From the IMG/VR virus record IMGVR_UViG_2778261341_000005: DNA of 35,293 nucleotides. One strand, given 5' to 3'. The position numbers were made by a program, and so were the translations under genes. Under the pieces are notes generated by a model that saw only the letters and a list, made by a program, of their open reading frames with translations, ran no database searches and had not been told where the DNA came from. The stretch is from a virus (taxonomy: Duplodnaviria; Heunggongvirae; Uroviricota; Caudoviricetes). Of this stretch, positions 21,309 to 35,293 are shown in pieces; position 1 is the stretch's first letter; every line of letters begins with the position of its first letter.

Positions 21309-23132
21309 ATGCGCCGCCATAATGGGCGCATGGCTAAATATTCTGACGAAATTAAAGAGGCGGCCCGCTCGCTTTATCTGAAGCGGTGGCATCCCCGGGA
21401 TATTGCGGCGGAGCTCTGTATTCCGCCGCGCACGGTTTACCACTGGTGTGATGTGGGGCAGTGGGCCGCCCTGCTGCCCGCTGAATCCGTTGAGGAGGTG
21501 ATCGCCCGGCGTATTGATGTGCTGACCGGGCGCGAGGGCAAGACGGAGTGCGAACTTGCCGAACTGCGCGAGCTTATCGCACAGCACGTGAAGATTATCG
21601 CCCAGAAAAACAAACACGCTGAAAGGATGGCGGAAATTGCCGCCACGCGTCCGGCAGTGTGCGACGACGGTGTGGCGGCGACCAGCGGCGGGGGTGAAGG
21701 GAAAAAGCGGCGCTACCGGAAAAACGACGTTTCCGGGCTGACTGCTGAAATGCTGGATGCATGGGCGCGTAAAAATCTTTATGCCTACCAGCTGCACTGC
21801 CGCGAGAACCGGTACCGTGAGTGGCGTTTCATTCTCAAGAGTCGCCAGATAGGCATGACCTGGTATTTTGCATGGGAGGCGTTCGAAGATGCGGTGGTGA
21901 CCGGTGATAACCAGATATTCTTTTCTGCGTCACGGGTTCAGGCGGAAATCTTCCGCGAATATATTATTAACTTCGCCCTGCAGTTCGGGATCACGCTCAC
22001 GGGTAAGCATATCCGTTTAAGCAATGGCGCAATGCTGCGTTTCCTGTCCACCAATGCCAGTACCGCCCAGGGATTTAACGGCCACCTTTACGGCGATGAG
22101 GTGTTCTGGATCCCAAAATTCACGCGACTGCATGAAGTGGCCTCGGCAATGGCAACCCACGACAAATACCGAACGACGTACTTTTCCACGCCCAGCGCCA
22201 AAACCCACCAGGCTTATCTGGTGTGGAACGGTGACGAGTGGCGCGGCGATGATCCGGCGCGTCGTGCGGTTGAGTTTCCGAAAGAAAGTGCGATGCGTGT
22301 GGGGTGCGAATGTCCGGACGGGATCTGGCGCTACATTATCCGTCTGGAAGAGGCGGTGGCGGGTGGCCTGTCCGCGCGGGTCAATATTGAACGTATCAGG
22401 AATCGCTATAACCCGACCACCTACGCGATGCTGTACGGCTGCGAGTTTGTTGACAGCAAGGATGCGGTATTTAAGTTCTCCGAACTGGTCAGGTGCGAGG
22501 TGGAGATGGAGACGTGGGGGGACTACGACCCCACCGCAGCACGTCCGTTCGGCAATCGTGAGGTGTGGGCGGGCTTTGACCCGTCAAGGTCCGGGGATAA
22601 TTCCACGTTCGTGATTGTGGCTCCGCCGCTTCATAAGGGCGAACGTTTCCGGGTGCTCGCCGTCTGGCAGTGGCAGGGATTTAATTTCAGCTGGCAGGCC
22701 GAACAGATCCGCGAACTGATGCAGCGCTTTAACATTACCTATATCGGCATCGATATTACCGGCATCGGGAAAGGGGTGTTTGATATCGTCAGTCGCTTTG
22801 CGCCGCGTGAGGCTAACGCCATTCTTTACAGCGTGGAGAGCAAAAACCGCCTGGTGATGAAGATGATAGACGTGGTGGCCCATAAGCGTATCGAGTGGGC
22901 GAAAGATGCCATTGATGAGGCCAGCCGTGAACGCACGGAGATCCCCGCGTCGTTTATGGCCATACGCCGCACCACCACAAAAAGCGGTAACGCGCTGACG
23001 TTCGTGGCGGAACGGTCAGATGTTACGGGGCATGCGGATGTGTTTTTTGCCATTTCGCACGCCGTGATTAATGAGCCTGTTGATTATGACTATGAGCGCC
23101 CGTCCACATGGGCCTTCGGGAAAGCCGCATGA
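21309..23132 (+). CDS. terminase large (ATPase) subunit (gpP-like); start may be the ATG at 21330
   Basis: 607 aa; position and size as P2 P; stop overlaps the portal start (ATGA). Confidence 0.8.
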   Translation: MRRHNGRMAKYSDEIKEAARSLYLKRWHPRDIAAELCIPPRTVYHWCDVGQWAALLPAESVEEVIARRIDVLTGREGKTECELAELRELIAQHVKIIAQKNKHAERMAEIAATRPAVCDDGVAATSGGGEGKKRRYRKNDVSGLTAEMLDAWARKNLYAYQLHCRENRYREWRFILKSRQIGMTWYFAWEAFEDAVVTGDNQIFFSASRVQAEIFREYIINFALQFGITLTGKHIRLSNGAMLRFLSTNASTAQGFNGHLYGDEVFWIPKFTRLHEVASAMATHDKYRTTYFSTPSAKTHQAYLVWNGDEWRGDDPARRAVEFPKESAMRVGCECPDGIWRYIIRLEEAVAGGLSARVNIERIRNRYNPTTYAMLYGCEFVDSKDAVFKFSELVRCEVEMETWGDYDPTAARPFGNREVWAGFDPSRSGDNSTFVIVAPPLHKGERFRVLAVWQWQGFNFSWQAEQIRELMQRFNITYIGIDITGIGKGVFDIVSRFAPREANAILYSVESKNRLVMKMIDVVAHKRIEWAKDAIDEASRERTEIPASFMAIRRTTTKSGNALTFVAERSDVTGHADVFFAISHAVINEPVDYDYERPSTWAFGKAA

Positions 23133-24181
23133 GCAAGAAACGCAGAAACAAAACGTCACGCGTGACGAAAAAAGCATTCACGCCTGCACGTGGCAGCACA
23201 ATCACCTTCGGTCAGCCGGAACCGGTACTGACCACCGGCACGGATTACCACAACATCTGGTATGACAACGAATATAACCACTGGCAGCTGCCGATTAACC
23301 GTCTGGCACTGGCGCAGCTCCCGAACCTTAACGCCCAGCACGGTGGGGTACTGTATGCCCGTCGTAACATGGTGGCGGGGGGCTATACCGGTGGTGGTCT
23401 CACAACGGACCAGATGGAACAGGCGGTGTTTGACTACCTGTTGTTCGGCGATCTCGCTCTGCTCAAGGTGCGTAACGTATTCGGCGACGTCGTGGCACTT
23501 GAGCCGCTTCCGTCGCTGTATCTCCGGCGCCGCAAGACCGGCGAGTTTGTGGTGCTTCAGGAAGGGCCCGCGCTGGTCTATGTGCCGGAAGATATTATCT
23601 TTCTGCGGATGTATGATCCGCGCCAGCAAATTTACGGCCTGCCGGACTATATCGGAGGCATCCATTCGGCGCTGCTGAACAGTGAGGCCACCCTTTTTCG
23701 TCGTCGTTACTACAACAACGGGGCGCATATGGGGTTCCTGCTGTATACCAATGATCCCGGAATTACCACGGAGATGGAGGATGAGATCCGCGAGAAGGTG
23801 GCGGAGTCCAAGGGACTGGGAAATTTCCGCAATCTGTACATCAATATCCCTAAAGGGGCACCGGACGGGGTGAAAATTATCCCGATTGGTGAGGTGAGCG
23901 CCAAGGATGAATTTTCAAACATCAAGGGGATCAGTGCCCAGGATGTGTTTACAGCACACCGTTTTCCTGCCGGGCTTGCGGGTATTATCCCAACAAACGG
24001 AGCCACCATCCCCAACCCGGAGACGACGCGTGAAACGTACCGCAAGGATGAGGTGATACCGCTTCAGCGTAAAATCATGAATGCCGTGAACAGCGATCCC
24101 GATATACCGGAACACCTTCACCTCCGTTTTGATGCAGACGCCGGGCATGTGGCGGAAGAAAAAGTGGTGCCGGTCGGGTAA
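23129..24181 (+). CDS. portal protein (gpQ-like)
   Basis: ATLFRRRYYNNGAH and GLGNFRNLYINIPKGAPDGVKIIPIGEVSAKDEFSNIKGISAQD match P2 Q blocks; start ATG 23129-23131 overlaps the P stop. Confidence 0.9.
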   Translation: MSKKRRNKTSRVTKKAFTPARGSTITFGQPEPVLTTGTDYHNIWYDNEYNHWQLPINRLALAQLPNLNAQHGGVLYARRNMVAGGYTGGGLTTDQMEQAVFDYLLFGDLALLKVRNVFGDVVALEPLPSLYLRRRKTGEFVVLQEGPALVYVPEDIIFLRMYDPRQQIYGLPDYIGGIHSALLNSEATLFRRRYYNNGAHMGFLLYTNDPGITTEMEDEIREKVAESKGLGNFRNLYINIPKGAPDGVKIIPIGEVSAKDEFSNIKGISAQDVFTAHRFPAGLAGIIPTNGATIPNPETTRETYRKDEVIPLQRKIMNAVNSDPDIPEHLHLRFDADAGHVAEEKVVPVG

Positions 24182-24218
24182 AATGTCCTCCCCGGGATAC
24201 ATGTTATCGGGAGGTAAG

Positions 24219-24482
24219 ATGCGGATTTTTAAAGCCCGGTGTCCGGACTGTGGCGCACCTGCTGTCATCCGGAAGACAGACTGGAAAACCCCTGAACTTG
24301 CGGATCTGTACTGTGCATGCAGTGATGTCGAATGCGGGCATACCTTCGTCTGTACGATGACCTTTTCCCACACACTCAGTCCCGGTGCCCGCTCCGGTCG
24401 CAATCTGGTGAAGTTCCTGGTGGATACCATGCGGCCGGAAGATCGCCGGTATGCGCTTGAACTTCTGTCGCGGCATTCCTGA
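24219..24482 (+). CDS. Ogr/Delta-family zinc-finger late transcription activator
   Basis: 87 aa; C-x2-C-x22-C-x4-C (Cys8, Cys11, Cys34, Cys39); GGAGG Shine-Dalgarno upstream of ATG 24219. Confidence 0.8.
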   Translation: MRIFKARCPDCGAPAVIRKTDWKTPELADLYCACSDVECGHTFVCTMTFSHTLSPGARSGRNLVKFLVDTMRPEDRRYALELLSRHS

Positions 24483-24499
24483 CGCGCTTCGCTTGTCTG

Positions 24500-24542
24500 C
24501 TGCTTCACCGGGGCAAAAAGAATTTTTGCCCCGGTGAAGCAG
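24500..24542. terminator. perfect 20-bp-arm palindrome (3-nt loop) between convergent genes; putative bidirectional terminator
   Basis: ctgcttcaccggggcaaaaa-gaa-tttttgccccggtgaagcag; no flanking U-tract, so terminator function is an inference. Confidence 0.4.
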
Positions 24543-24544
24543 CT

Positions 24545-25108
24545 TCATGAAAAATCTGGTACTGAATACAGTGGTATAACCTGAAATCCGTTACACTTCC
24601 AGGACTGCGCTATATCTGGTGACTGCGTGATGGCGGGTAACGGGATTCTGTCATTACAGGTCACCCATGCCTTTGGCTCAGAGGTCAGGATCATTAACGC
24701 AATGCGGTAACTTTGTAGCCTGGCCTCATCATCCTCTGAAAGCCCGAACGGGATATCTGATTTTACCTCATCCATCTGTTCGATTCTCTTCCCTAAAAAT
24801 ACCGCGAGGAAGTTTCTGCTCTCCTGGCATAAGGCCATTTCCGGTATTGTGTACAGTGATTCAACATGTCGGCCTGCATGGTTCCAGGCTTTCACAGCGA
24901 CATCGTGTCGTGTAATGTCGAAAGAAAGGCTTTCTTTGCCCGGAGTGGGTGATCTCCATGCTACCGCCTTTGCGGTAAGTGCCTCCAGTGCAATACGGTG
25001 TACGCATAAGAGCATGAGGGTGTCATCGTCAGGAATCGCCAGTGTGTTTATTTTTTTCAAGCTGATCAATTTCATGGAGGTTATATTTTTTAGTTGTCTT
25101 CTTTTCAT
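24545..25108 (-). CDS. hypothetical protein (187 aa), lower-GC cargo gene
   Basis: Start placed at ATG 25106-25108 with AGGA Shine-Dalgarno (track ORF extends to 25240 over the upstream small gene); no motif recognised. Confidence 0.45.
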   Translation of the reverse strand: MKRRQLKNITSMKLISLKKINTLAIPDDDTLMLLCVHRIALEALTAKAVAWRSPTPGKESLSFDITRHDVAVKAWNHAGRHVESLYTIPEMALCQESRNFLAVFLGKRIEQMDEVKSDIPFGLSEDDEARLQSYRIALMILTSEPKAWVTCNDRIPLPAITQSPDIAQSWKCNGFQVIPLYSVPDFS

Positions 25109-25125
25109 ACGTTTTTTCCTTTCAG

Positions 25126-25290
25126 TCACGAGAGCAACCAGATAACCGCAACGGTTGCCGCATAAATTCTGGCGATAAAGCCCGGTGTGAAGTGGCGAAA
25201 CGGGTTTTCCCACGTCAGGAATGCCATTAAAGCAATCCATGCAATGGTAAAAATCAGCGCGCCCTTAACGGCGATAAACAGTTCGTTCAT
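25126..25290 (-). CDS. small membrane protein (54 aa, two predicted TM helices)
   Basis: AAGGAG 8 nt upstream of ATG 25288-25290; product MNELFIAVKGALIFTIAWIALMAFLTWENPFRHFTPGFIARIYAATVAVIWLLS; below track threshold. Confidence 0.4.
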   Translation of the reverse strand: MNELFIAVKGALIFTIAWIALMAFLTWENPFRHFTPGFIARIYAATVAVIWLLS

Positions 25291-25364
25291 TGTGGTGTTC
25301 TCCTTTGTTTATCGGGTGAATGAATTTCGTTGCTGTGAGAAAAATCAGGCGTGCCAGCGCAGCC

Positions 25365-25553
25365 TTACTGCTGACGGCGTTCCCGGAGTTCGGTCAGTGC
25401 TGCAAGTAAATTCTCCCACCACGTTTCTTCCACGACCGGATTTTGTCGTGAAAGCAACTGCTGCGCCGACTCAATCATCTTCTTCAGGTCTTTGTCGCTG
25501 ATCCTCCTGGTGTCGTTCATGGTGCGCTCCTTTAGTTGGCTGTTTCTGGTCAT
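25365..25553 (-). CDS. hypothetical small protein (62 aa or shorter)
   Basis: ORF abutting the stop of the 138-aa gene; charged and helical; no motif. Confidence 0.3.
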   Translation of the reverse strand: MTRNSQLKERTMNDTRRISDKDLKKMIESAQQLLSRQNPVVEETWWENLLAALTELRERRQQ

Positions 25554-25555
25554 GT

Positions 25556-25972
25556 TTATGGTCTTTGTTGTCTGCGTGATTGTCTGCTGGCGGTTGAATT
25601 CACATAGCGGGCAATTGCTGCTTTGCGGTTAATCAATGCCAGTGTTCTGGTCAGTTCTGCGTTGTGTTTGTGTGCCTGCTCTTCGTGGTACTGCCGCATG
25701 ATTTTTCCGGCAGGCGTGAGCGGCTCCGGCTCCCCGGGCGGACGGCGCGGACGAACGGCGACAAGCCAGCTGCGGTTAGTGCTGTCCGGTCGTCCGTTGA
25801 GTATGTCGGTGATGATGGTCGTGGTGGTTCTGTCGGGGCTGACGACCGTGATTTCCAGCTCGTCGCCCGGTTGTGGTCTCGTGGCAATGTTGTTCAGGGG
25901 CAGTAAGGGCGTGCGCTGGCGCATCATTTCGTCAAATTGCCGGTGCTGCATGCTGCAATAAAAGCGGGTCAT
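25556..25972 (-). CDS. hypothetical protein (138 aa) downstream of A
   Basis: Start overlaps the A stop (translational coupling). Confidence 0.45.
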   Translation of the reverse strand: MTRFYCSMQHRQFDEMMRQRTPLLPLNNIATRPQPGDELEITVVSPDRTTTTIITDILNGRPDSTNRSWLVAVRPRRPPGEPEPLTPAGKIMRQYHEEQAHKHNAELTRTLALINRKAAIARYVNSTASRQSRRQQRP

Positions 25973-28497
25973 TGTGGCGCCTCCGTATTCGGTGCGGGGG
26001 TGATATCAATGCGGCGGGTGCTGTCATTCCAGTACGCGGTGCGTCCGTCAGCCAGGCGAACGCGGGCACCGTGACGGACGGAAACGACGGCGCTTTCATG
26101 CAGATGCACGCCCAGCGCATTGAGCTCGCGGGTGATTTGTGCGGTGATGTGTGGTTCAGAGGTCAGAGCGACACTCACGCGAACGCCGCCAGCGGGCGCA
26201 CTGATGCCGCCGTTTTTCACGGTTTCCGTGTCAGGTGGCAGGTTTTTCAGCTGCCTGGTGAGTTGTTTTCGCTCTGTGGGGGTCAGTGACCTTAACCATT
26301 CACCCAAATCACCTTCCGGCAGGGTAAGTCGCTGCTCCCTGCGTCCGTCCGGCTGCCTTTCTGGCGGGTCGTTTATGGTCAGATTCTGGTCAGGGGGACA
26401 GTTATTGCCACGAGTCCAAGGTGCGGCAAAGCCGCACTCAACGTCAAAACCCTCGTCCGTGCGGTCTTCGTTTTCCGGCTTACGTCTGACCAGTTTCCAG
26501 GTGTCCGGGTGGGTGCATATGGTGTAGCGCTCCCCGAGTGACGGGGCGCGGACGCCGTAAATGCGTTGCGGGAATTCGCCGTAGTCGTTGGCCTCTTCGG
26601 CAGTTTCGTATGCGGTGCGGACCAGGTACGTGTTGCGGGGAATGAGCACACCACCCTGGCGGGTGATATATGTGGCAAAACATCCCACGTCGGCGGCGGC
26701 CAGTATGGCGTCAATGTCGTCATGGTCCAGACGCTGCGGGACAGCCGGGTTACGGGCCATCTGCCCGGCAAGGCGGCGGAGTTCTCGCCATACCTGGCGG
26801 GGAGGGATACCGAAGAACTGGAACTGGCGGATGCGGTGAAGGGCCGCCCAGCCGATGGCGTTCTCCACGGTTTCGGCCATGGTTTTGCCTGATTCCTTAT
26901 CGACGTAAGGTTTGCCGGTTTTCGGGTCATTCCCCATGAAGGCGCTGGCGTCCAGGTTCTTACCGATATAGGTCGCGATATAGCTCGCCGGTGTGCCTTT
27001 TGCCGGGTCGATTTTTTCGCATTTAAAACGCGGGGAGATATCATCACCCAGCTCTGCGCGGTCCTCCCTGATGGCGGCGTTGCGCATGATTTCAGTGATA
27101 CGGGCTTCGTTTTCCGGGCTGGTGAATACCAGCATGTGCCAGTGCGGTGTACCGTCGTGGTGGGGCTCCACGGTGCGCACGCCGTACCAGCCCAGCCCGG
27201 CCTTGTTGATGGCCCTGCGGACGGCGGCGAAAAAGCGGTAAACCAGATAATCACTGGCATCACGTACCGTTGCTCCGCAGTATTTCGGGTTCAGGCTGCC
27301 GTCATCGTTCACGCTGTGAAAACGGGAAGGGGCTGTGACGGTGACGAAAAACGCCAGGTCGCCGCGTGCTTCGGCGACCTGCTCCATTCCCCGGACGCAG
27401 GCCATCATCTCGTTACGGCGGTTACGCGGATTAGAGAGACCTGCCCAGTAGATATCCTCAAGGCTGAACCGTTCTCCCTCTTCGTTCTCGATGTCCCAGG
27501 CCTTCAGAAAATCGCGGGTGCGCTGGCGTTTTTCGCGCCAGTCCAGTAACGCTTCATGGCTGATATATACCGATGTCTTACGTGACACCAGACCTGCGGC
27601 GCGTAACAGCTCTTCACGCCAGATGTCCCGGAGGTGTCTTAACTGACTGTTCCACCATGTCGCACAGGAAAGGCGCATGACCGCACCCGGCACCTGTTCC
27701 GGGTCGGGGGCGGTGCGGCGGTCGGGTCTGATTTCCAGCGACGGCCAGCAGGGTGGCGTGATACCCAGTTTTAACGCCATGTGTGCCAGTGGCTGGTAGG
27801 TCAGTAACCAGGTGAACAGGTCATCGTCACCCCTGCCGGTCTTTTCGATGACCTCATCACATGCGCGCTCCAGTGCGGCGGAAAACGCGGTGGCGGTCAG
27901 GGTGGCAAGGCGCTGGATTTCGTCACGGCTCAGCTGCGGCAGCATAAGCAGTTCATCCAGCCGTTCGCGGGCGGCGGTGGCCTTAAAGGCCGGGGTGGCA
28001 AAGCGTTCATTCACACGGGCGATACGTTTCAGGCGGGCACGCAGCCCGTGACGAACGAAGTTATCCGCCGCGTATGCGCTGTTGTTCTTAAGCCCTTCCC
28101 GGCGTGCGCTCTCCTGTTTGCGGCTCAGGCGTGCCAGGTCCCGGATGAGCGGACCGGCAAGAAACGGCGGCAGGGCGCGCAGCTCTGCCATGGCTTCAGA
28201 TACCAGCGTGGGTGGATTTTCGCGTTTGTGCCGCGCCAGTTTTTCCAGCCTGATCCGACGCTCTTCGTCGTGGTGAAGATGCGAATTAATTCGCTTGCCT
28301 TCGTCTGTGTTTGTCAGGAAGTCGACGGTCTCTTCATCCAGTCTTGCATCAATGCGAATGTCTTCGTTGATGTAGCTCTGAATGGCCTGGCGCAATGCGG
28401 TTGGTTGCGCTCTGCCGAATGTTTCAGGATCGATAACCGGTAGCGGGGCGTTCCACGGGTACGCCAGTTGTGCGTTATGGTCGCTCATGCGTCGCAC
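25969..28497 (-). CDS. replication initiation protein A (HUH rolling-circle endonuclease, P2 gpA family)
   Basis: 842 aa; HUH motif (HHDGTPHWHMLVF) and twin-tyrosine motif (YIATYIGKN). Confidence 0.9.
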   Translation of the reverse strand: MRRMSDHNAQLAYPWNAPLPVIDPETFGRAQPTALRQAIQSYINEDIRIDARLDEETVDFLTNTDEGKRINSHLHHDEERRIRLEKLARHKRENPPTLVSEAMAELRALPPFLAGPLIRDLARLSRKQESARREGLKNNSAYAADNFVRHGLRARLKRIARVNERFATPAFKATAARERLDELLMLPQLSRDEIQRLATLTATAFSAALERACDEVIEKTGRGDDDLFTWLLTYQPLAHMALKLGITPPCWPSLEIRPDRRTAPDPEQVPGAVMRLSCATWWNSQLRHLRDIWREELLRAAGLVSRKTSVYISHEALLDWREKRQRTRDFLKAWDIENEEGERFSLEDIYWAGLSNPRNRRNEMMACVRGMEQVAEARGDLAFFVTVTAPSRFHSVNDDGSLNPKYCGATVRDASDYLVYRFFAAVRRAINKAGLGWYGVRTVEPHHDGTPHWHMLVFTSPENEARITEIMRNAAIREDRAELGDDISPRFKCEKIDPAKGTPASYIATYIGKNLDASAFMGNDPKTGKPYVDKESGKTMAETVENAIGWAALHRIRQFQFFGIPPRQVWRELRRLAGQMARNPAVPQRLDHDDIDAILAAADVGCFATYITRQGGVLIPRNTYLVRTAYETAEEANDYGEFPQRIYGVRAPSLGERYTICTHPDTWKLVRRKPENEDRTDEGFDVECGFAAPWTRGNNCPPDQNLTINDPPERQPDGRREQRLTLPEGDLGEWLRSLTPTERKQLTRQLKNLPPDTETVKNGGISAPAGGVRVSVALTSEPHITAQITRELNALGVHLHESAVVSVRHGARVRLADGRTAYWNDSTRRIDITPAPNTEAPQ

Positions 28498-28901
28498 TCC
28501 CCGGCAGTCGCCGCCTGAAACGCCGCGCGGTACAGCACGAGAAGGCGCTGGTATTCACCGATAAAGTCTTCTGCGGTGTATATGCCTTTCACGGCCACGC
28601 TGTGGTTTGTCATTTCCAGAACAAGCGTCATCTCTGACGACGACCAGCTGATGGCGGTGCTGTCGGTTCCGTTGATGTGAAATAAACCAAAACCATCACC
28701 ATCACCTTTCACGTCCACGCGGTAACGGTCGTCAACGGTGAAGGAGAAATCCCCGTATGTGGTGACGCGTCTGGCGGCCCGTTTACAGGCGCGGCGGTAA
28801 TAGTCGTGCCAGTCGTTCAGGCGGGAAGCCAGCCGGGGATCCACTGCCCACATCCAGTTAAAAAAATCCTGAATATCTGAAAGTCCCTTAACGCTCTTCA
28901 T
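28485..28901 (-). CDS. hypothetical early protein (138 aa)
   Basis: Overlaps the start of A by 13 nt; no motif. Confidence 0.45.
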   Translation of the reverse strand: MKSVKGLSDIQDFFNWMWAVDPRLASRLNDWHDYYRRACKRAARRVTTYGDFSFTVDDRYRVDVKGDGDGFGLFHINGTDSTAISWSSSEMTLVLEMTNHSVAVKGIYTAEDFIGEYQRLLVLYRAAFQAATAGECDA

Positions 28902-28969
28902 GAGAACCTCCGGTAACAGACGTGCGGAAGCCTCCCGCGCACGGGTGCGGGATGGCTTCAGGATGTTGT

Positions 28970-29197
28970 TTAGTGGTGGTGTTGCTGGTTGATGAGGCTT
29001 TGCAGTTCTGCCATATCTTCGGCGAGATAGCTGAAGACAGCAGCGCAGTAACGGTTTGATAGCGCGTGCGTGCGCTCATGCAGCATGTTGATATGCATGA
29101 TTTGCGCGACGCGTGATGCGCGCCAGAGTCTGCGGTTGATTTCAGTGCGGATGTGAAGACGCTCAGCGCGGGCGCGCTGTTGCCTGCGGTTTGCCAT
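28970..29197 (-). CDS. hypothetical early protein (75 aa, basic)
   Basis: Preferred over the overlapping 206-aa ORF 28888..29508, whose product is low-complexity S/T/R-rich. Confidence 0.4.
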   Translation of the reverse strand: MANRRQQRARAERLHIRTEINRRLWRASRVAQIMHINMLHERTHALSNRYCAAVFSYLAEDMAELQSLINQQHHH

Positions 29198-29376
29198 GGT
29201 GTTTGGCCTCTTGTAGTAAGTTCTGAAAACTCACCATCCAGAGCTGCGAAACAGTGGGTGGCGAGACGTACGAGGTTCGCAGTACCGGCTACAAGAGATC
29301 CCGGCCCGACCGAAGTCGGCCCCGTACGCCCCGCCATAATTCTGACGCGAAAAAGACGTGGCGATACAGTACGCAC

Positions 29377-29397
29377 AAAAAAACCGCTGGCGCGGTT
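29377..29397 (-). terminator. intrinsic terminator inside the early region (putative)
   Basis: Plus strand aaaaaaa + accgctggcgcggt: read on the minus strand a GC hairpin followed by T7. Confidence 0.4.
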
Positions 29398-29519
29398 GTG
29401 CGCTCTTGTAGTCGGCAGGCTGCGAAACCCGGCACCCGTTTTATGAGGTGCAGCGGGAATGTAACCTGACTGATTGCGGCATGGCAAGCGGTTTTTTTGT
29501 GTGTGCATGTTCTGGTTTC

Positions 29520-29819
29520 TTACTGGTTCAGAAAAAAATCAAAAACCTTGTCAATGCGTTGCAGTAGCTCTTGCTGTATTGCTTCCGGCGTTTCCGGTTC
29601 ACCTGGCGCCTCCAACGTCGCGCAGAAATCAGCGATTTCATGATGGAGCGCCAGGCGAATGGCAGGAGCCGTGGTTCTGGCGTGCTCCAGCTCATCCAGC
29701 AGTGCCAGCACAGCAGACGGCGAGAGCATTGCGCGAAATGCCAGTAATTTTTGAGGCGTTGCCATTCGTTGCAGGGCAAATGCCAGTTCGCGTAGCTTCT
29801 GGTGGTTGATGGTGCTCAT
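29520..29819 (-). CDS. hypothetical early protein (99 aa), paralogue of 30108..30359
   Basis: Shares ADFCATLEAPGEPETPEAIQQELLQRIDKVFDF with DDFTATLSGPGAPVTPGEIHRDLKRRIENAIDY of the neighbouring gene. Confidence 0.45.
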   Translation of the reverse strand: MSTINHQKLRELAFALQRMATPQKLLAFRAMLSPSAVLALLDELEHARTTAPAIRLALHHEIADFCATLEAPGEPETPEAIQQELLQRIDKVFDFFLNQ

Positions 29820-30082
29820 GCTCTGGCTTCCTTCAGTAGCTGGTTAAACATGTGAGTAAGTGGATTGCTACACCCGAACGGCATCGGGTTTACGTGGTAA
29901 GAAGCCCGGCCTCCTGTTTTGCGAGCGCGACCACCTGTGCTGCGGTTTGTTCTGATGACTAAGCCACCGCGCCAGAGTCGGCGTAACTCAGCATTAATGG
30001 CTGTGGTCTGGGTATTCAGTGCCGTGGCGATTTCACTTCCGCTGCACCCCGGATTGGCTGCGATGTAGTCCAGAATGGTCAT
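29816..30082 (-). CDS. small winged-helix-like DNA-binding protein (88 aa), putative
   Basis: LDYIAANPGCSGSEIATALN ... LRRLWRGGLV pattern typical of wHTH regulators. Confidence 0.4.
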   Translation of the reverse strand: MTILDYIAANPGCSGSEIATALNTQTTAINAELRRLWRGGLVIRTNRSTGGRARKTGGRASYHVNPMPFGCSNPLTHMFNQLLKEARA

Positions 30083-30107
30083 CGTGAGATCTCCTTTGCA
30101 GTTCCGG

Positions 30108-30359
30108 TTATTCAGTCGGGTTCAGGGTGTAATCAATGGCGTTTTCAATACGGCGTTTAAGGTCCCGGTGGATCTCACCTGGTGTTACTGGTGCGCCCGG
30201 ACCGCTCAGCGTTGCCGTGAAGTCGTCGATTTCCTCCAGTAACAGATTGCGGAGTACGGCGATGTGGTGGCGTGCGTCTTTACCGGGTTTACGTGCGTTG
30301 GTGGTGTACTTGCTGATCATGGCCGCAGCTCTCCGTGGGCTTGTGTTTCTGATTTCCAT
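30108..30359 (-). CDS. hypothetical early protein (83 aa), paralogue of 29520..29819
   Basis: See paralogue. Confidence 0.45.
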   Translation of the reverse strand: MEIRNTSPRRAAAMISKYTTNARKPGKDARHHIAVLRNLLLEEIDDFTATLSGPGAPVTPGEIHRDLKRRIENAIDYTLNPTE

Positions 30360-30574
30360 GCCCCTCTGATGGCCGTTACTTCGCGAACGGTACTGGCAAT
30401 CGCGGTGATTTGTGTTCCGTCAGCCAGATGGATGTAGAGATAATCAGCGTCTGACGGGCACGGCGTGGTCGTTGTGATCAAATGACTTTCCACCATGAAC
30501 TCGTGGCCCACGGCATCGGTGAAACGCGTCAGCATGGTGGCGGTAAATATGCTGTTCATCGACCTGCCCCTCAC
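30317..30574 (-). CDS. hypothetical early protein (about 80-85 aa)
   Basis: ORF in operon context; start uncertain. Confidence 0.35.
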   Translation of the reverse strand: MRGRSMNSIFTATMLTRFTDAVGHEFMVESHLITTTTPCPSDADYLYIHLADGTQITAIASTVREVTAIRGAWKSETQAHGELRP

Positions 30575-30849
30575 GCTGAAAACTGGCCGGACTGTGTCCG
30601 GAGTTCTGCCAGTTCGCGCTCGAGGCGCAGGTTTTTCATATAGAGTTCACTGATGGTCTGTTTTGCTGTCACCATTGCCATGCTTTGCATTTGCAGGGCC
30701 ATGTAGGTGGCAAAATGCTTGTCTTTATCTATTTCTGATATTCTTTCATCCAGTACATTGGTTATTTCAGTCAGCGTTTTTTGCGTAAATTCAATATGCG
30801 CCGGGTCGGTAAATAGTTTGTTTATTTCTGTAGGTGTATTGATGCTCAT
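30571..30849 (-). CDS. hypothetical early protein (92 aa, coiled-coil-like)
   Basis: ORF in operon context; no motif. Confidence 0.4.
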   Translation of the reverse strand: MSINTPTEINKLFTDPAHIEFTQKTLTEITNVLDERISEIDKDKHFATYMALQMQSMAMVTAKQTISELYMKNLRLERELAELRTQSGQFSA

Positions 30850-30928
30850 AGCTGTTTCTCCGTTTCTGGATTGAGTGAAGCCCTCCGCAGATGCGGATGG
30901 TTTTAATGTTTTCTGTCCGGTTGGTTAT

Positions 30929-31054
30929 TTATTTACGGCGTTCTTCGCCAGTAAATAAAGATTCGATATTTTTCAGCGCTTCGATAATTCGCATAATGCC
31001 AATCGCCATAAGCACGGAAATAATCAGAATCACCCATGAAAGAAATACGCTCAT
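30929..31054 (-). CDS. small membrane peptide (41 aa), putative
   Basis: ATG overlaps the TGA of the upstream gene (ATGA); product MSVFLSWVILIISVLMAIGIMRIIEALKNIESLFTGEERRK (one TM helix plus charged tail); below track threshold. Confidence 0.35.
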   Translation of the reverse strand: MSVFLSWVILIISVLMAIGIMRIIEALKNIESLFTGEERRK

Positions 31055-31293
31055 GCTGCATTCCCAAGTGCGTATGGCTCAATATGTACTCCGCATTCTG
31101 CATCACGAACAAGCTCAGACAGCTCATTGAGAGCATCCAGATCGTCAGCGTAAAAAGCTGCATCATACAGGCTGCGAATTGCTCTGGTCAGTGAGTCTCT
31201 TGCTGCATGTTCTGCGGCAACTCCTGACATACTCAGGCGAAAGTTAAAGCGCTCAAGGGCTTTATTGATGAGAACCTTATATTCTTTGTCCAT
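31051..31293 (-). CDS. hypothetical early protein (80 aa)
   Basis: ORF in operon context. Confidence 0.4.
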   Translation of the reverse strand: MDKEYKVLINKALERFNFRLSMSGVAAEHAARDSLTRAIRSLYDAAFYADDLDALNELSELVRDAECGVHIEPYALGNAA

Positions 31294-31313
31294 TGTATTT
31301 CCCCGGAAAACAA

Positions 31314-31568
31314 TTAAACAAAATCGCTTAATGATTTACCTGATTCAATCTTCTCTATCGTGTCTTCAATAGCCATGTATGCGGCGTAATCGCCTGCGAG
31401 GTCGGCGCATTTCTGTAGCCCCTGTAATGCGCTGATGATATCTTCTTTTGCTTCCCATAAAGGTTTTGCTGTATTTAGTGCATTACGGGCATTATTAGCT
31501 ATGAGCCGGTGTATGATAATTGTGTAGGCTGATGCTATCTCTGCCATGTCTTTTGTCGTTGTTGCCAT
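31314..31568 (-). CDS. hypothetical early protein (84 aa)
   Basis: ORF in operon context. Confidence 0.4.
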   Translation of the reverse strand: MATTTKDMAEIASAYTIIIHRLIANNARNALNTAKPLWEAKEDIISALQGLQKCADLAGDYAAYMAIEDTIEKIESGKSLSDFV

Positions 31569-31571
31569 GTA

Positions 31572-31907
31572 TTAATTCCCCCATGGATGCTGAAAACTGC
31601 GACCGCTGATTAACCGGTCTGCCGTTCTTAATGCTTCGTGCAGGGTGAAATCCTGCCCGAACTGCTCATCTCCGCGAGTCAGGGAGTAACAGGTATTTCC
31701 GGTAATCGGGTTGCGTGCGCCTCTGTGTATGACAATTCCGGCATCATTAATCAGCCAGGTGTGTTTACCGGTTTGTTTAACCAGATGCCCGTCAGGTGTG
31801 GCGTGCGTTTCCTGCAGGCTGTAGTGCGAGTTGCTGCGTGATGCGCTGGTTGAGAAACGGTTAGCGTGGCGTTCTGTTCCGGTGCGGAAGCTGCGTCTCT
31901 GTGTCAT
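31572..31907 (-). CDS. hypothetical early protein (111 aa), first gene after the 31908-32015 promoter/operator region
   Basis: Upstream intergenic region carries palindrome ccacgc-ccggc-gcgtgg. Confidence 0.4.
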   Translation of the reverse strand: MTQRRSFRTGTERHANRFSTSASRSNSHYSLQETHATPDGHLVKQTGKHTWLINDAGIVIHRGARNPITGNTCYSLTRGDEQFGQDFTLHEALRTADRLISGRSFQHPWGN

Positions 31908-32015
31908 ATCGGAAAACCCCGTTTAAGTTAAATGAAAATCAGTGCCGGGATGTTTAACCACGCCCGGCGCGTGGTATTCTGGTGTTTCCACACAACCAGA
32001 AAAAAGGTAACTAAC

Positions 32016-32339
32016 ATGATTGATAAAAGCGTTAAGGACGCTATCACTGAATACCTGGTTAGCATTTACACAACTAATCTTGCTGTGGCTCCTGTTGATA
32101 AGTTGACCGACCCAAGAGACTCAGTGGGAGTGGTGTCCGATCTGCTTATTTCGCTCCTCATTAGCGAACTTCCCGATGATAAAAGGGATGCATTGATGAA
32201 AACTGCGTCAGAAATTTTGCGTCAGATAGAGGGGCAACAAGCCTTTGCTCCCTATGCCGTGAATATAAGGACACGCTTTCATAGTATTAATCATCTTGCG
32301 TGCTTTATTCGCGCCTCTAAAGACAAACCAGATCTCTGA
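32016..32339 (+). CDS. hypothetical protein (107 aa), AT-rich cargo cassette
   Basis: Start placed at ATG 32016; convergent with and overlapping the 3' end of the 172-aa gene; no motif. Confidence 0.4.
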   Translation: MIDKSVKDAITEYLVSIYTTNLAVAPVDKLTDPRDSVGVVSDLLISLLISELPDDKRDALMKTASEILRQIEGQQAFAPYAVNIRTRFHSINHLACFIRASKDKPDL

Positions 32340-32835
32340 CTTGTTCAACAATATATTTTTCCACCCCTTCTTTGACTGGCAGGTTCCGGTCAAGGGAGGG
32401 GAAAAGAATCAATGGTTTTTGTAAAAATCCCATTAACGTCGATAAAAACTCAATTTTCACATTGAAGCCTTCTGATTTTCGTCGCATTATTTCGCGTTGT
32501 ACGATTGGCCACATGTAGTCCAGGTTAATTTCCTTTAGCTCCGCAACATAATTAAGGTATGCCTCGCACCCCTGAATGCTTACAGGTCTAAAAGAAATAT
32601 CCAGATAATTATCAGGAATAATCGTACTGGTTGAATAAATAATTCCACCCACAACCCTATCTTTGTGCTTTATTGCTCTGACAAAAAATGTTTTGCCTTC
32701 TAAATCCCTTTCTGTTGCCAGCCAGGGGTCTCCTGTTATCAGGCAATCCTCATCAATGGCGATTACTTCGCCAGCCTTACTCCCGTGTTCGCTGTATTTC
32801 TTATGCATACCTTCTTCTTCTGGTGTAATCGTCAT
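32317..32835 (-). CDS. hypothetical protein (172 aa), AT-rich cargo cassette
   Basis: Visibly AT-rich coding sequence relative to flanking phage genes; no motif recognised. Confidence 0.5.
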   Translation of the reverse strand: MTITPEEEGMHKKYSEHGSKAGEVIAIDEDCLITGDPWLATERDLEGKTFFVRAIKHKDRVVGGIIYSTSTIIPDNYLDISFRPVSIQGCEAYLNYVAELKEINLDYMWPIVQREIMRRKSEGFNVKIEFLSTLMGFLQKPLILFPSLDRNLPVKEGVEKYIVEQVRDLVCL

Positions 32836-32855
32836 ATATCCTCCTTCGTGCCGGG

Positions 32856-33251
32856 TTATTCCGTCGTTTTGCTTTTGTAAATAGTGGTTTTATTAAGTGC
32901 CATTTCTCCGAATATATCCACAGCCTGATCAACGGGCAGATTAATCATTATTCCACGGGTTGCGTATAGCATTATTCCGATGCATCCATTTTCTCTACTT
33001 TCGCAAAAGTGCCCGAACTCTGCTTCTGGTTTAAGTATCAGGTCATCAATGTTTTCATTCGCTTTTAGCTTTGAACAAAAGTTAATTAATCCTTCAAGCT
33101 CTTTGTGTAACTCGCTATAGGTTGTTGTGATTGTTATTTTCGGTGAGCCTTCCAGATGCATCAGTATCGTGGCGTCCTTGTGTTCCTCTTTCAGGAGGCT
33201 TAACTGCTTAAGGACGGTTGCGGTTTTTTCTGATTTATTTTTGCCGCTCAT
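32856..33251 (-). CDS. hypothetical protein (131 aa), AT-rich cargo cassette
   Basis: Visibly AT-rich; lies directly downstream of the Cox-like gene; no motif recognised. Confidence 0.5.
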   Translation of the reverse strand: MSGKNKSEKTATVLKQLSLLKEEHKDATILMHLEGSPKITITTTYSELHKELEGLINFCSKLKANENIDDLILKPEAEFGHFCESRENGCIGIMLYATRGIMINLPVDQAVDIFGEMALNKTTIYKSKTTE

Positions 33252-33257
33252 CGATCA

Positions 33258-33782
33258 TCACCGTTCGTTTACATCCTGGCTCTGTTCCAGCTTTGACTTT
33301 CTGCCTTTGTAAACCCGTTTTCCATTGACGGTCTGGCAATCTTCCTTATCAGCCGGGGTAAACTTTCTTTTCTGGCGGTCGTATGTCCAGTAGCTTTTCC
33401 AGTTGTGCCATTCTGGTGGCTCGCATTCCGGGAGTTCGTCGGCCAGCTTGTCCCACTCTCTGACGTTAAACCACCAAACACCATCCGAATTCTCATCTTC
33501 AGGGTTTGAGCGGGTTTTATGCCCTGGCATCTGGTTACGCTGAAGAGCTGCGCGTAATGCTGTTTTTGTTAATCCGATGTAGGCGGCCCCTTTTTCAAGT
33601 GAGCAAAGCCCGGCTATTGGGCCATCTAGCCGCAGGGTTGCCCCTTTTTTATATGTGCGCTGTGGCTTTTGTTCGTCGTTGTTATCTGTTGCTTCTTGTT
33701 GACTGGTATCGGCGTTGATGTACGCCGCTCCAGTTGTGTGATCGGTGTCAGATAACTCTTTATCGGCAATGAAGTCCCGCAT
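33258..33782 (-). CDS. Cox/Apl-like excisionase-regulator (HTH), extended form; true start uncertain
   Basis: Core ATLRLDGPIAGLCSLEKGAAYIGLTKTALRAALQRNQMPG ... DGVWWFNVREWD aligns with P2 Cox (VTLMTDAIPYQEFAKLIGKSTGAVRRMIDKGKLP ... EYWVYLPAWN); divergent from the C repressor gene. Confidence 0.5.
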   Translation of the reverse strand: MRDFIADKELSDTDHTTGAAYINADTSQQEATDNNDEQKPQRTYKKGATLRLDGPIAGLCSLEKGAAYIGLTKTALRAALQRNQMPGHKTRSNPEDENSDGVWWFNVREWDKLADELPECEPPEWHNWKSYWTYDRQKRKFTPADKEDCQTVNGKRVYKGRKSKLEQSQDVNER

Positions 33783-33883
33783 TTGTTATCCTCTCGCACA
33801 GGTGCGCCTATTGCACCTTATGAAGGTTTGTTTTGGTTTGTTTAATGTCGAAATTACGACACTTTTGCGAGGATTTTAGTGGT
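33783..33883. promoter_or_regulatory. immunity switch region between cox-like and C genes (putative early and repressor promoters/operators)
   Basis: Position between divergent Cox-like and C genes; contains GCAC-N2-GTGC and a further TTGCACC repeat. Confidence 0.4.
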
Positions 33884-34231
33884 ATGAATTCGACACTGTC
33901 AATAAGTATCGGTGAAAAAATCTTGATGATCCGGAAAAGTGAGAGGCTTACAAGGAAGCAATTCTTTGAGCTTACAGGGATTCCTGTTAATACGCAGAGG
34001 TATTACGAAACGGGAAGGCAAGATGGAATCGGAAGTGAGATCTTATTAAAGATCACAAAAAATTTACGTTTTAAAAAATATGCACTTTGGTTAACAACTG
34101 ATGAAACGTTTGAAGCTGGGGGTCAAATTGCCCCGGCTCTCTCTCTTGATGGATCTTCTCAGTCGGAGGGCGATCTGGCTTCAATCGACGTTACCCAAAA
34201 ATCATCCCGATCAGGCCGCAATGCTGGCTGA
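33884..34231 (+). CDS. immunity repressor (P2 C-type, HTH)
   Basis: From ATG 33884 (GAGGA Shine-Dalgarno): MNSTLSISIGEKILMIRKSERLTRKQFFELTGIPVNTQRYYETGRQ ... GGQIAPALSLDG closely parallels P2 C (EKIVLMRKSEYLSRQQLADLTGVP...YYESGR...SGQIAPALAHFG). Confidence 0.8.
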   Translation: MNSTLSISIGEKILMIRKSERLTRKQFFELTGIPVNTQRYYETGRQDGIGSEILLKITKNLRFKKYALWLTTDETFEAGGQIAPALSLDGSSQSEGDLASIDVTQKSSRSGRNAG

Positions 34232-34300
34232 CGTTACACATCGAGCGGGTTTCATCCCGCAGGGAGTGTTTGGTTAATTTATCCGTTGGAGGGGCTAATC

Positions 34301-35293
34301 ATGTCGATTAAGCAACTCAAAGACGGACGTTATAAGGTTGATGTAAGGCCACAAGGGACGGAAGGAAAGCGGATTCGTAAGATTTTTACCCTGAAGTCAA
34401 AGGCGCAGGAGTTTGAAAGGTATGTTTTGCAGAATTTTCATGATAAGCCATGGCAGGCTAAGCCAGCAGATCAGCGTCGGTTATCCGAACTGATAGAGGC
34501 CTGGTGGTTGCTTGATGGTCGTAACCAGGATTACGGGGATACCTACAGGGTCAGACTGGAAAAGATAAACCGTGAGATGGGTGATCCTCGTGCCAGTCAG
34601 ATGACGCGAAAATTTATGCTCGGGTACCGGTCCGACAAATTACAGGCCGGGTTAATGCCTTCCAGCATTAACCGCGATTTGTGTGCCTTGTCTGCAATGT
34701 TCAGCTCGCTGATTGAGGGTGAGGTGTTCCATAACGAAAACCCGGTTCGGGGAATACGTAAGCTGAAAGTCAGGAACACAGAGATGGCCTTTCTTTCAGA
34801 TGAGGAGATTGAACGACTGCTTGAACGACTCGATGGAGATGCGCGGCGTGTTGCCATTCTGTGTCTTTCCACGGGGGCAAGGTGGGGCGAAGCAGCTGGT
34901 TTACGTGGGGAACATATTGTAGGTAACCGCGTGATGTTCTTTAACACCAAGAACGGAAAATCTCGCGCCGTTCCCGTTTCTGATGCGGTACTTGCGTTAA
35001 TTAAAACCCGCAGAACCGGATTGTTGTACCAGGCTGATTACCTCAGATTTCGGGAGATCCTTCAGGAGGTGAAGCCGGACTTGCCGAAAGGGCAGGCCAC
35101 CCATGTCATGCGTCATACATTCGCTACACATTTCATGATGAATGGCGGAAATATCGTTACGCTACAACGAATCCTGGGCCATGCCACGATTCAACAAACG
35201 ATGACGTATGCGCATTTTTCGCCGGACTTTTTACAGGATGCAATCAGCTTTAATCCGCTGGCTGAAAGTGTCCATAAACTGTCCATCGATTAG
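34301..35293 (+). CDS. int: tyrosine integrase (P2 Int family)
   Basis: MSIKQLKDGRYKVDVRPQGTEGKRIRKIF ... ILCLSTGARWGEAAGL ... HVMRHTFATHFMMNGGNIVTLQRILGH ... YAHFSP matches P2 Int blocks including the catalytic R..H..R..Y region; stop is the last codon of the window. Confidence 0.93.
   Translation: MSIKQLKDGRYKVDVRPQGTEGKRIRKIFTLKSKAQEFERYVLQNFHDKPWQAKPADQRRLSELIEAWWLLDGRNQDYGDTYRVRLEKINREMGDPRASQMTRKFMLGYRSDKLQAGLMPSSINRDLCALSAMFSSLIEGEVFHNENPVRGIRKLKVRNTEMAFLSDEEIERLLERLDGDARRVAILCLSTGARWGEAAGLRGEHIVGNRVMFFNTKNGKSRAVPVSDAVLALIKTRRTGLLYQADYLRFREILQEVKPDLPKGQATHVMRHTFATHFMMNGGNIVTLQRILGHATIQQTMTYAHFSPDFLQDAISFNPLAESVHKLSID

Follow-up and report, generated by a model that had tools for sequence, protein, structure and literature searches.

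The two small genes at positions 24545-25290 of the window, the whole 35,293-nt stretch that was analysed, look like uncharacterised accessory cargo of the early region, set in an established hotspot of a P2-like E. coli prophage adjoining serS; they assort independently of each other and do not form a unit. The larger gene encodes a 187-aa protein that is unusual only in carrying a compact phage module twice, and the smaller one encodes a 54-aa peptide that is a rare orphan. The preliminary description of this locus had joined the membrane peptide and the cytoplasmic protein into one plausible abortive-infection or superinfection-exclusion module. This pairing was not supported, since the two genes assort independently and no defence family of PADLOC, Pfam or NCBIfam was matched, and a defence or exclusion role for the pair is not favoured.

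Location of the two genes in the gpA-gpQ hotspot

Both genes were located between the replication gene A and the Ogr/portal region, which places them in the gpA-gpQ hotspot, defined as the interval between A and Q. This hotspot is variable among P2-like prophages and is the site of P2 old and tin (Rousset et al. 2022, PMC9122126; PMC13586616), as the preliminary description had proposed from the position. The 54-aa ORF, its AAGGAG sequence, the 17-nt gap and the 187-aa ORF, all of which it had reported, were found on the minus strand at the positions listed below. Its placement of the genes between A and Ogr/portal was also correct, but the 138-aa and 62-aa genes that separate A from the peptide gene had been missed. 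The features of the locus were as follows.

23108-24181: portal gene (Q); the terminase gene also lies on the Ogr/portal side.
24219-24482, plus strand: gene of the Ogr/Delta zinc-finger late activator (PF04606 at 2.5e-15), right flank of the hotspot, convergent with the 187-aa gene.
24499-24543, no strand assigned: perfect 21-bp hairpin between the convergent 187-aa and ogr genes (-41 kcal/mol on either strand, z about -9.6).
24545-25108, minus strand: 187-aa gene, beginning at an internal ATG of a 231-aa ORF, with AAGGA in front.
24545-24826, minus strand: repeat 2 of the 187-aa protein (residues 95-187 plus stop codon), a helical hairpin and a canonical EPxAW...T.S...W...G..V.PLY unit, net charge -4.2.
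24827-25108, minus strand: repeat 1 of the 187-aa protein (residues 1-94), a helical hairpin and a divergent PVAW...LY unit, net charge +4.8.
25126-25290, minus strand: gene of the predicted 54-aa small membrane protein, recognised by its ORF, its hydropathy and PGAP annotation in relatives (WP_032209977.1).
25300-25305, minus strand: Shine-Dalgarno sequence AAGGAG of the 54-aa gene, 9 nt before the ATG, read from the sequence.
25365-25553, minus strand: 62-aa early-operon gene (phrog_14672), adjoining the peptide gene upstream and present in most close relatives.
25556-25972, minus strand: 138-aa gene (phrog_14984), overlapping the end of gene A and near-core in the lineage of the window.
25969-28497, minus strand: replication endonuclease gene A (PF05840 at 1.4e-106), left flank of the hotspot.

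The product of the Ogr/Delta gene was called by PGAP in relatives as an 87-aa protein. The composition of both genes looks foreign: the GC content was 0.491 in the 54-aa gene and 0.465 in the 187-aa gene against 0.556-0.60 in A, ogr, portal and terminase, as the lower GC seen earlier had suggested, and the GC3 of the 187-aa gene was 0.495 against about 0.65. A search of the window for a P2-type cos sequence found none.

The survey of related prophages between A and Q, proposed earlier as a check, revealed that close relatives carry different cargo. At 94-95% identity of the flanks, the hotspot contained genes for 54 plus 187 aa, for 54 plus 72 aa, or for a MarR protein plus 56 aa, and further arrangements were found in other relatives. 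In sister phages, the same spot was occupied by genes co-oriented with A that encoded an SSB-family protein, ClpX-zinc-finger-only proteins, MarR-like winged-helix proteins, Ead/Ea22-like proteins (in the hotspots of loci L020 and L045) or an HTH-M78 peptidase with a PIN protein, and larger membrane proteins were encoded on the opposite strand. In its operon-proximal part, the hotspot resembles the ea/nin stretches of lambdoid phages, with their regulatory and host-takeover genes, and not a defence island. Over its full extent, it abounds in defence systems (PMC9122126; PMC13586616); recognised defence systems occur in about half of P2-like prophages, many of them within the gpA-gpQ hotspot (PMC13586616). 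The RefSeq accessions of both proteins were not found in the available portion of the supplement text of Rousset et al. The gpA-gpQ hotspot is being mined for new anti-phage systems, and its operon-proximal part also holds small ea/nin-type genes; such genes, probably co-transcribed with the early genes, should not be scored as defence from position alone.

The 54-aa gene encodes a predicted membrane hairpin

Both ORFs are genuine genes beyond chance. PGAP annotates both of them (WP_032209977.1 and WP_062857809.1) in three complete E. coli genomes with 95% DNA identity over the region. The 54-aa product contained two hydrophobic stretches by Kyte-Doolittle analysis, at residues about 4-26 and 34-54, in agreement with the two-helix membrane nature first ascribed to it. 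The 19-residue means were 2.2 (residues 4-22) and 1.55 (residues 35-53), with values below 0.3 in the loop and a GRAVY of 1.15. With its two hydrophobic stretches of about 20 residues and a short polar loop, the peptide is a predicted two-helix membrane hairpin. The loop reads WENPFRHFTPGFIxR in the window and W-[ED]-N-P-x-x-[HY]-F-T-P-G-F-I-x-R across the homologues.

The peptide was found at 64-98% identity in at least five lineages, with length and hydropathy unchanged, and four of its homologues, at 64-75% protein identity, came from other P2-like prophages (L045, L046, L047 and L048). A word-indexed search returned only three clusters of homologues, and a profile search added two. The AAGGAG sequence was invariant across five related loci, whereas the remaining spacer varied, and the ORF together with its ribosome site was more conserved than the 74-nt spacer upstream. 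One variant of the gene showed an in-frame deletion of three codons. Compared with the L045 copy, the dN/dS of the peptide gene was 0.66, which indicates weak purifying selection. The gene was present in 7 of 5426 complete E. coli genomes, and the peptide matched no family in Pfam, NCBIfam, PHROG or PADLOC. An antisense ORF of 104 aa at 25187-25501 was considered as an alternative and rejected; it had no ribosome-binding site and was unannotated, whereas the peptide frame has a strong site and conserved hydropathy. This antisense ORF shares its wobble positions with the peptide gene, and counts of synonymous sites cannot tell the two apart.

The 187-aa protein is a tandem duplication

The frame of the 187-aa gene is retained in full-length relatives at 89%, 65% and 31% protein identity, all of which keep the two-part architecture. 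A compensated frameshift distinguishes codons 8-18 of the window gene from those of the 89% variant, which argues for selection on the frame that begins at the first ATG; outside the frameshifted patch, 7 non-synonymous and 3 synonymous changes were counted. The gene was present in 3 of 5426 complete E. coli genomes, and a 55-nt remnant of it remained in three genomes (L002 and two more). The dN/dS values of both the peptide gene and the 187-aa gene were high, which would fit relaxed constraint as well as either kind of arms-race gene.

The preliminary description had seen no recognisable motif in the 187-aa protein. Our results showed that it is an internal tandem duplication, in which the alignment of residues 24-92 with residues 122-187 scored 68, compared with 23.5 +/- 4.2 for shuffled sequences, and that it matches phrog_660 (2.5e-6), phrog_60 (4.9e-6) and phrog_5117 (2.5e-5), as well as phrog_28084. 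Repeat 1 scored 33 bits against a profile built from the C-terminal repeats of the relatives only. The AF2 model, computed from an alignment of 44 sequences (the window protein and 43 relatives), had a pLDDT of 92.4 and a pTM of 0.84; an alignment of 4 sequences gave a pLDDT of only 48, so the larger alignment was needed. In the model, repeat 1 consisted of helices 3-23 and 28-45, strands 50-54 and 63-66, helix 69-77 and strand 83-86, and repeat 2 of helices 98-118 and 125-141, strand 147-151, helix 164-172 and strand 176-182. For the 187-aa protein, the AlphaFold check suggested earlier yielded a confident model with no significant fold match among the solved PDB structures, and a sequence-profile search of the PDB returned 0 matches. 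The 187-aa protein matched no Pfam family at E ≤ 1 and no NCBIfam family significantly, and the alternative frame of 231 aa likewise gave nothing significant. At E ≤ 1, the PADLOC-DB v2 profiles matched neither of the two proteins nor the 231-aa ORF.

The core residues of repeat 2 were E144, P145, A147, W148, T161, S163, W170, G174, P179, L180 and Y181, of which P145, A147, W148, T161, W170, P179, L180 and Y181 occupied conserved columns. Repeat 1 retained A50, W51, T66, W75, G79, L85 and Y86 and lost both prolines. The conserved columns were limited to P, A, W, T, W, G, P, L and Y, with no set of acidic, histidine or cysteine residues suggesting catalysis; as the conserved residues are structural and not catalytic, the 187-aa protein was read as non-enzymatic. 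The protein is near neutral, with a pI of 7.7, which ruled out a role as a DNA mimic. The hairpin of repeat 2 contained a KSDIPFGLSEDDE turn. An exposed [DE]-I-P-F-G turn at the hairpin tip of the module resembles the C-terminal tip of SSB, DDDIPF.

The PVAW...PLY module in other phages

A word-indexed search with the 187-aa protein returned only 3 clusters. An exhaustive HMMER search of 1.84 billion representatives found 56 clusters at E ≤ 1e-3, two of which (P0002 and P0007) were full-length tandem proteins, and all the others matched repeat 2 only. The relatives were short proteins encoded in genomes of Escherichia, Salmonella, Klebsiella and Erwinia and in enterobacterial phages, including Cronobacter phages. 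The PHROGs matched by the window protein were also matched by 40-42 of the 44 aligned sequences, and all four of them (660, 60, 5117 and 28084) are without assigned function. The relatives were annotated as hypothetical, EaA, "Ea22", DUF551 domain-containing or, by mis-annotation, valyl-tRNA synthetase. Literature matches for "eaA" were spurious and arose from the article identifier "eaar4120".

The module consisted of a helical leader hairpin ending in IALxxLEAEP and a small alpha/beta domain with conserved E-P-V-A-W, T-x-S, W, G and P-L-Y. Some proteins, of 84-105 aa, consist of this module alone, and in others it precedes DUF551 or a MazZ-like dATP/dGTP pyrophosphohydrolase domain on the N-terminal side. 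Among the 44 aligned sequences, 10 contained DUF551, always as a separate domain at the C-terminus. The 187-aa protein itself had no Pfam match to DUF551 (PF04448) and none to the Ead/Ea22-like family PF13935. Repeat 2 resembled this family in its match to the profile, its core residues and its leader hairpin with the ending IALxxLxxEP, and the 187-aa gene shared with it an early, non-essential position next to replication genes. The family usually carries one module, whereas the 187-aa protein carries a tandem pair without the DUF551 or MazZ-like fusion.

All family members were co-oriented with early genes and lay in early non-essential regions. One member was found beside the ea22 and EaA genes of a lambdoid phage, in its exo-xis region (L038), others after O/P-like replication genes in lambdoid prophages (L040-43), and others downstream of gene A in P2-like prophages other than that of the window (L008, L044, L045 and L047). 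A compact phage domain family without Pfam entry or solved structure has thereby been delineated, for which a confident model now exists. Its members are frequent in prophages of E. coli and Salmonella, Stx-type lambdoids among them.

The two genes occur independently of each other

The peptide gene was found in seven arrangements, which are listed below.

Arrangement 1: peptide and 187-aa gene (window type).
Arrangement 2: peptide, 13 nt, 65%-identical 189-aa gene (L047).
Arrangement 3: peptide, 75-aa leader-only ORF, DUF7446, truncated Ead/Ea22, 105-aa single-repeat family member (L045).
Arrangement 4: peptide, unrelated 72-aa ORF, 55-nt remnant of the 187-aa gene (L002 and two more genomes).
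Arrangement 5: peptide alone, as the last gene before Ogr (L009 and L018).
Arrangement 6: peptide and a 173-aa protein without assigned function (L046).
Arrangement 7: peptide and a ClpX-zinc-finger-only protein (L048).

The peptide gene was thus found without a gene of the 187-aa family in L002, L009, L018, L046 and L048, and genes of the family were found without the peptide in L008 and L044, within the same hotspot, and in all lambdoid contexts. An obligate module of two genes was not observed; each gene occurs without the other, and therefore neither needs the other. Counted by type of arrangement, a family gene was present in about 4 of 7 arrangements with the peptide and in 2-3 of 10 without it, and this recurrent adjacency is explained equally well by shared ancestry of a mosaic region and by functional linkage. 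Three diverged lineages (the window type, L047 and L045) had the peptide next to a family member, and functional linkage rather than shared ancestry could be the reason.

The genes probably close the early lytic operon

All genes from the cox-like gene to the 187-aa gene were on the minus strand with tight spacing. The best sigma-70-like match in 24000-35293 was TTGACA-18-TAAAAT at 33902-33873, upstream of the cox-like gene, and no minus-strand site of this type was found between 29458 and 24545 by a crude consensus scan, in which the number of matches was no higher than chance. In L045, L046 and L048, the peptide gene overlapped the stop codon of an upstream gene of 143-150 aa, so that in these relatives the homologues appear to be translationally coupled to the early lytic operon. 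More than 1000 E. coli genomes and P88-like phages share the 21-bp hairpin behind the 187-aa gene, which a scan of the window flagged only in part; it is probably a bidirectional terminator that closes the early operon. Judged from the crude promoter scan and the arrangement of the genes, both are probably the distal end of an early (cox...A) lytic operon of about 9 kb. Their co-orientation with early operons, together with the stop-codon overlaps in three homologues, led us to read both as accessory genes of the early lytic cycle. In P2, old and tin are expressed from the prophage, whereas the present genes look like the tail of an early lytic operon. P2 tin/orf91 is co-oriented with A and yet is expressed in lysogens.

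Possible functions of the two genes

The best explanation of these results, held tentatively, is that two separate early accessory genes lie side by side, the 187-aa protein being a non-enzymatic host-factor binder and the peptide an independent membrane hairpin. Both genes would be expressed in the lytic cycle, from the early promoter, and not in the lysogen. The 187-aa protein would be soluble and non-catalytic, built of two tandem copies of the module. The single-copy relatives probably act as dimers, and in the tandem form, as the opposite charges suggest, the basic copy 1 (+4.8) may pack against the acidic copy 2 (-4.2) as an intramolecular pseudo-dimer. Early in lytic growth, the protein would bind a host protein, and because the family always lies beside phage replication or recombination genes, this target would most probably be tied to DNA replication or repair. 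The SSB, ClpX-zinc-finger, MarR-like and Ead/Ea22-like proteins encoded at the same spot in sister phages point to cargo of the host-takeover type. The 54-aa protein would be an inner-membrane hairpin, semi-conserved at the end of the operon, and the exchange of its downstream partner genes suggests that it acts on its own.

The position in the early operon and the non-enzymatic, binding-type architecture would also suit a counter-defence role, in which the 187-aa protein is an early inhibitor that binds and neutralises a host immune protein. Rapid turnover, mosaicism, a high non-synonymous rate and the fusion of other family members to MazZ-like dNTP pyrophosphohydrolase domains are in keeping with such a role, but the pI of 7.7 speaks against a DNA mimic, no defence system is known as the target, and only two known types of anti-defence system, amounting to 28 elements, occur among 1511 P2-like prophages (PMC13586616); we regard this role as unlikely. 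The peptide could instead act by itself as a superinfection-exclusion or injection-blocking protein, with the 187-aa protein as unrelated cargo. Its retention while the downstream genes change, the conserved polar loop between its hydrophobic helices and its strong ribosome-binding site would be expected of such a protein. Its apparent expression from the early lytic operon, the coupling in relatives to a gene downstream of A, its presence in only 7 of 5426 complete E. coli genomes and the lack of homology to known exclusion proteins in family scans and homologue searches make this quite unlikely.

An abortive-infection or exclusion module of two genes, in which the repeat protein senses an incoming phage and activates or releases a membrane-depolarising hairpin, would account for the location in a defence hotspot, the tight spacing (17 nt here and 13 nt in L047), the foreign composition and the recurrent adjacency, with co-divergence in L047, where the peptide is about 70% and the larger protein 65% identical. 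Such a module is improbable, given that either gene was found without the other in several arrangements, that the 187-aa family resides mostly in lambdoid early regions without a membrane partner, that there was no PADLOC match and, by the crude scan, no promoter-like site of its own, and that the association of about 4/7 against 2-3/10 was not distinguishable from shared ancestry. An equally low probability was given to decaying or neutral cargo without current function. The great rarity of the genes (3 and 7 of 5426 complete genomes), the high dN/dS, the compensated frameshift near the N-terminus of the 187-aa protein and the 55-nt remnant in three genomes would fit decay, whereas the full-length frames and the two-repeat architecture kept at 31-89% identity, the restoration of the frame by the compensated frameshift, the confident AF2 model and the higher conservation of the peptide ORF compared with its upstream spacer argue against it. 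A more far-reaching version of the host-factor reading, which we consider a long shot, would make the PVAW...PLY module with its leader hairpin a widespread host-factor-binding domain of temperate phages of enterobacteria, whose turn competes for SSB-partner sites on replication or repair enzymes of the host; the tandem 187-aa form would then be bivalent, and the membrane hairpin would tether or localise the effect.

Comparison with known systems

The present genes share with P2 old and tin the slot between A and the portal gene, the variability among related prophages and the foreign composition, but no sequence or domain similarity was found. According to a 2026 bioRxiv preprint, Old is an ABC-ATPase/TOPRIM nuclease, whereas the present pair consists of a 54-aa membrane hairpin and a non-catalytic repeat protein.

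T4 Imm and HK97 gp15 are small inner-membrane exclusion proteins of other phages. The peptide is similar to proteins of this type in size and in its predicted two-helix hairpin, but shows no detectable homology to them.

YfdT of the CPS-53 prophage of E. coli K-12 has in common with the module family a leader helix of about 40 residues and lacks the PVAW...PLY unit, and orf35 of phage cdtI, a full family member, occupies the YfdT position of a yfdQRST-like cluster (L004). Multicopy yfdQR plus yfdS or yfdT inhibits the initiation of replication, and only YfdR has been shown to bind DnaA (PMC4776307). The link of the family to replication through YfdT is weak, because YfdT lacks the PVAW...PLY unit.

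Lambda Ea22 and the Ead_Ea22 family (PF13935) are likewise mosaic early accessory proteins, with a helical N-terminal part and swappable small C-terminal domains, but the 187-aa protein has no PF13935 match. The Ea22 variants of Stx phages carry an insert of 63 residues, which the original paper puts in the N-terminal region, and an identity of this insert with the module is not claimed. In phage PhiR57_1, an 84-aa member of the module family adjoins ea22 and is itself labelled "Ea22".

Leader-hairpin turn and frame variation of the 187-aa protein

The turn of the leader hairpin in the 187-aa tandem-repeat protein carried a short recurrent motif, and two alternative reading frames overlapped the 54-aa and 187-aa genes.

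24746-24784: DIPFG-type turn, residues 116-128 of the 187-aa protein
25187-25501, + strand: 104-aa antisense ORF, an overlapping alternative frame
24545-25240, - strand: 231-aa frame, an extension of the 187-aa gene with its start inside the gene of the 54-aa membrane peptide

Of the 44 aligned sequences, 13 had [KR][SD][DE]-I-P-F-G-[LM]-x-E-D-D at this turn; the shorter pattern [DE][IT]PFG was present in 21 of the 55 representative matches. Beyond the window, the turn motif was carried by the database representatives P0010, P0016, P0019, P0024, P0029, P0038, P0052, and P0056, as well as by a 105-aa ORF of the related locus L045. The acidic C-terminal tip of the E. coli SSB is DDDIPF. The turn sequence resembled this tip, although the tip is C-terminal in SSB and the turn is internal in the 187-aa protein.

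Comparison of the window copy with L001, the 89%-identical RefSeq variant, revealed a compensated frameshift across codons 8-18 of the 187-aa gene (25054-25087), in which the loss of one A after codon 7 was offset by a one-base gain about 30 nt further on, so that 11 residues were changed and the frame was kept. The database protein P0006 (64 aa) was a frameshift fusion that joined the N-terminus of the peptide to the 231-aa frame. Neither the 104-aa antisense ORF nor the 231-aa frame was backed by a ribosome site or an annotation.

Putative mosaic junction and cargo of the hotspot

Positions 4180-5455 of L045 contained a 75-aa leader-only ORF and the 105-aa ORF, a complete family member, which were almost identical in their first 50 residues and were separated by a DUF7446 gene and a truncated Ead/Ea22 gene. 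This arrangement suggests that DNA was inserted or recombined at the IALAALQ-KP joint, apparently a mosaic junction. K-12 YfdT parted from the family there as well.

In sister P2-like prophages, the hotspot between genes A and Q held other cargo. This cargo (L036 4973-5311 and 4551-4967, L048 3685-4017, L030 4992-5309, and L020 4429-4920) comprised small proteins consisting of the ClpX C4 zinc finger alone (PF06689, 4e-18), which could be ClpX decoys, together with an SSB-family protein (PF00436, 1e-12), a MarR-like winged helix, and an Ead/Ea22-like protein.

Flanking elements and the early region

Further features were located outside the 54-aa and 187-aa genes.

24499-24543: perfect 21-bp inverted repeat (-41 kcal/mol on each strand), flanked by the converging ogr and 187-aa genes
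33873-33902, - strand: near-consensus promoter TTGACA-18-TAAAAT, just upstream of the cox-like gene (33258-33782)
33833-34231, + strand: divergent 132-aa ORF, with the TTGACA-18-TAAAAT site inside or facing it
1-1293: serS (seryl-tRNA synthetase; PF00587 and PF02403), within which the window starts

P88-like phages shared a 57-nt stretch over the left arm of the inverted repeat at 93% identity. A short part of the repeat region also had matches in over 1000 E. coli genomes with no other similarity there.

The candidate promoter with the divergent ORF is probably the prophage's early promoter and immunity switch. A second low-GC stretch (30500-34500, 0.41-0.46) extended over the immunity region and the beginning of the early operon. 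Within it lay a DUF4761 gene (31572-31907), several ORFs without a family, and a 92-aa ORF (30571-30849) with weak PADLOC PDC-M64B/C matches (E 5e-4). For a 99-aa ORF of the early operon (29520-29819, - strand), the Ead_Ea22 match scored 22.9 bits (E 1.3e-4), below the cutoff of 27.

Because the window opened in serS and the first prophage structural genes lay about 2 kb downstream of it, the prophage was placed as integrated near serS.
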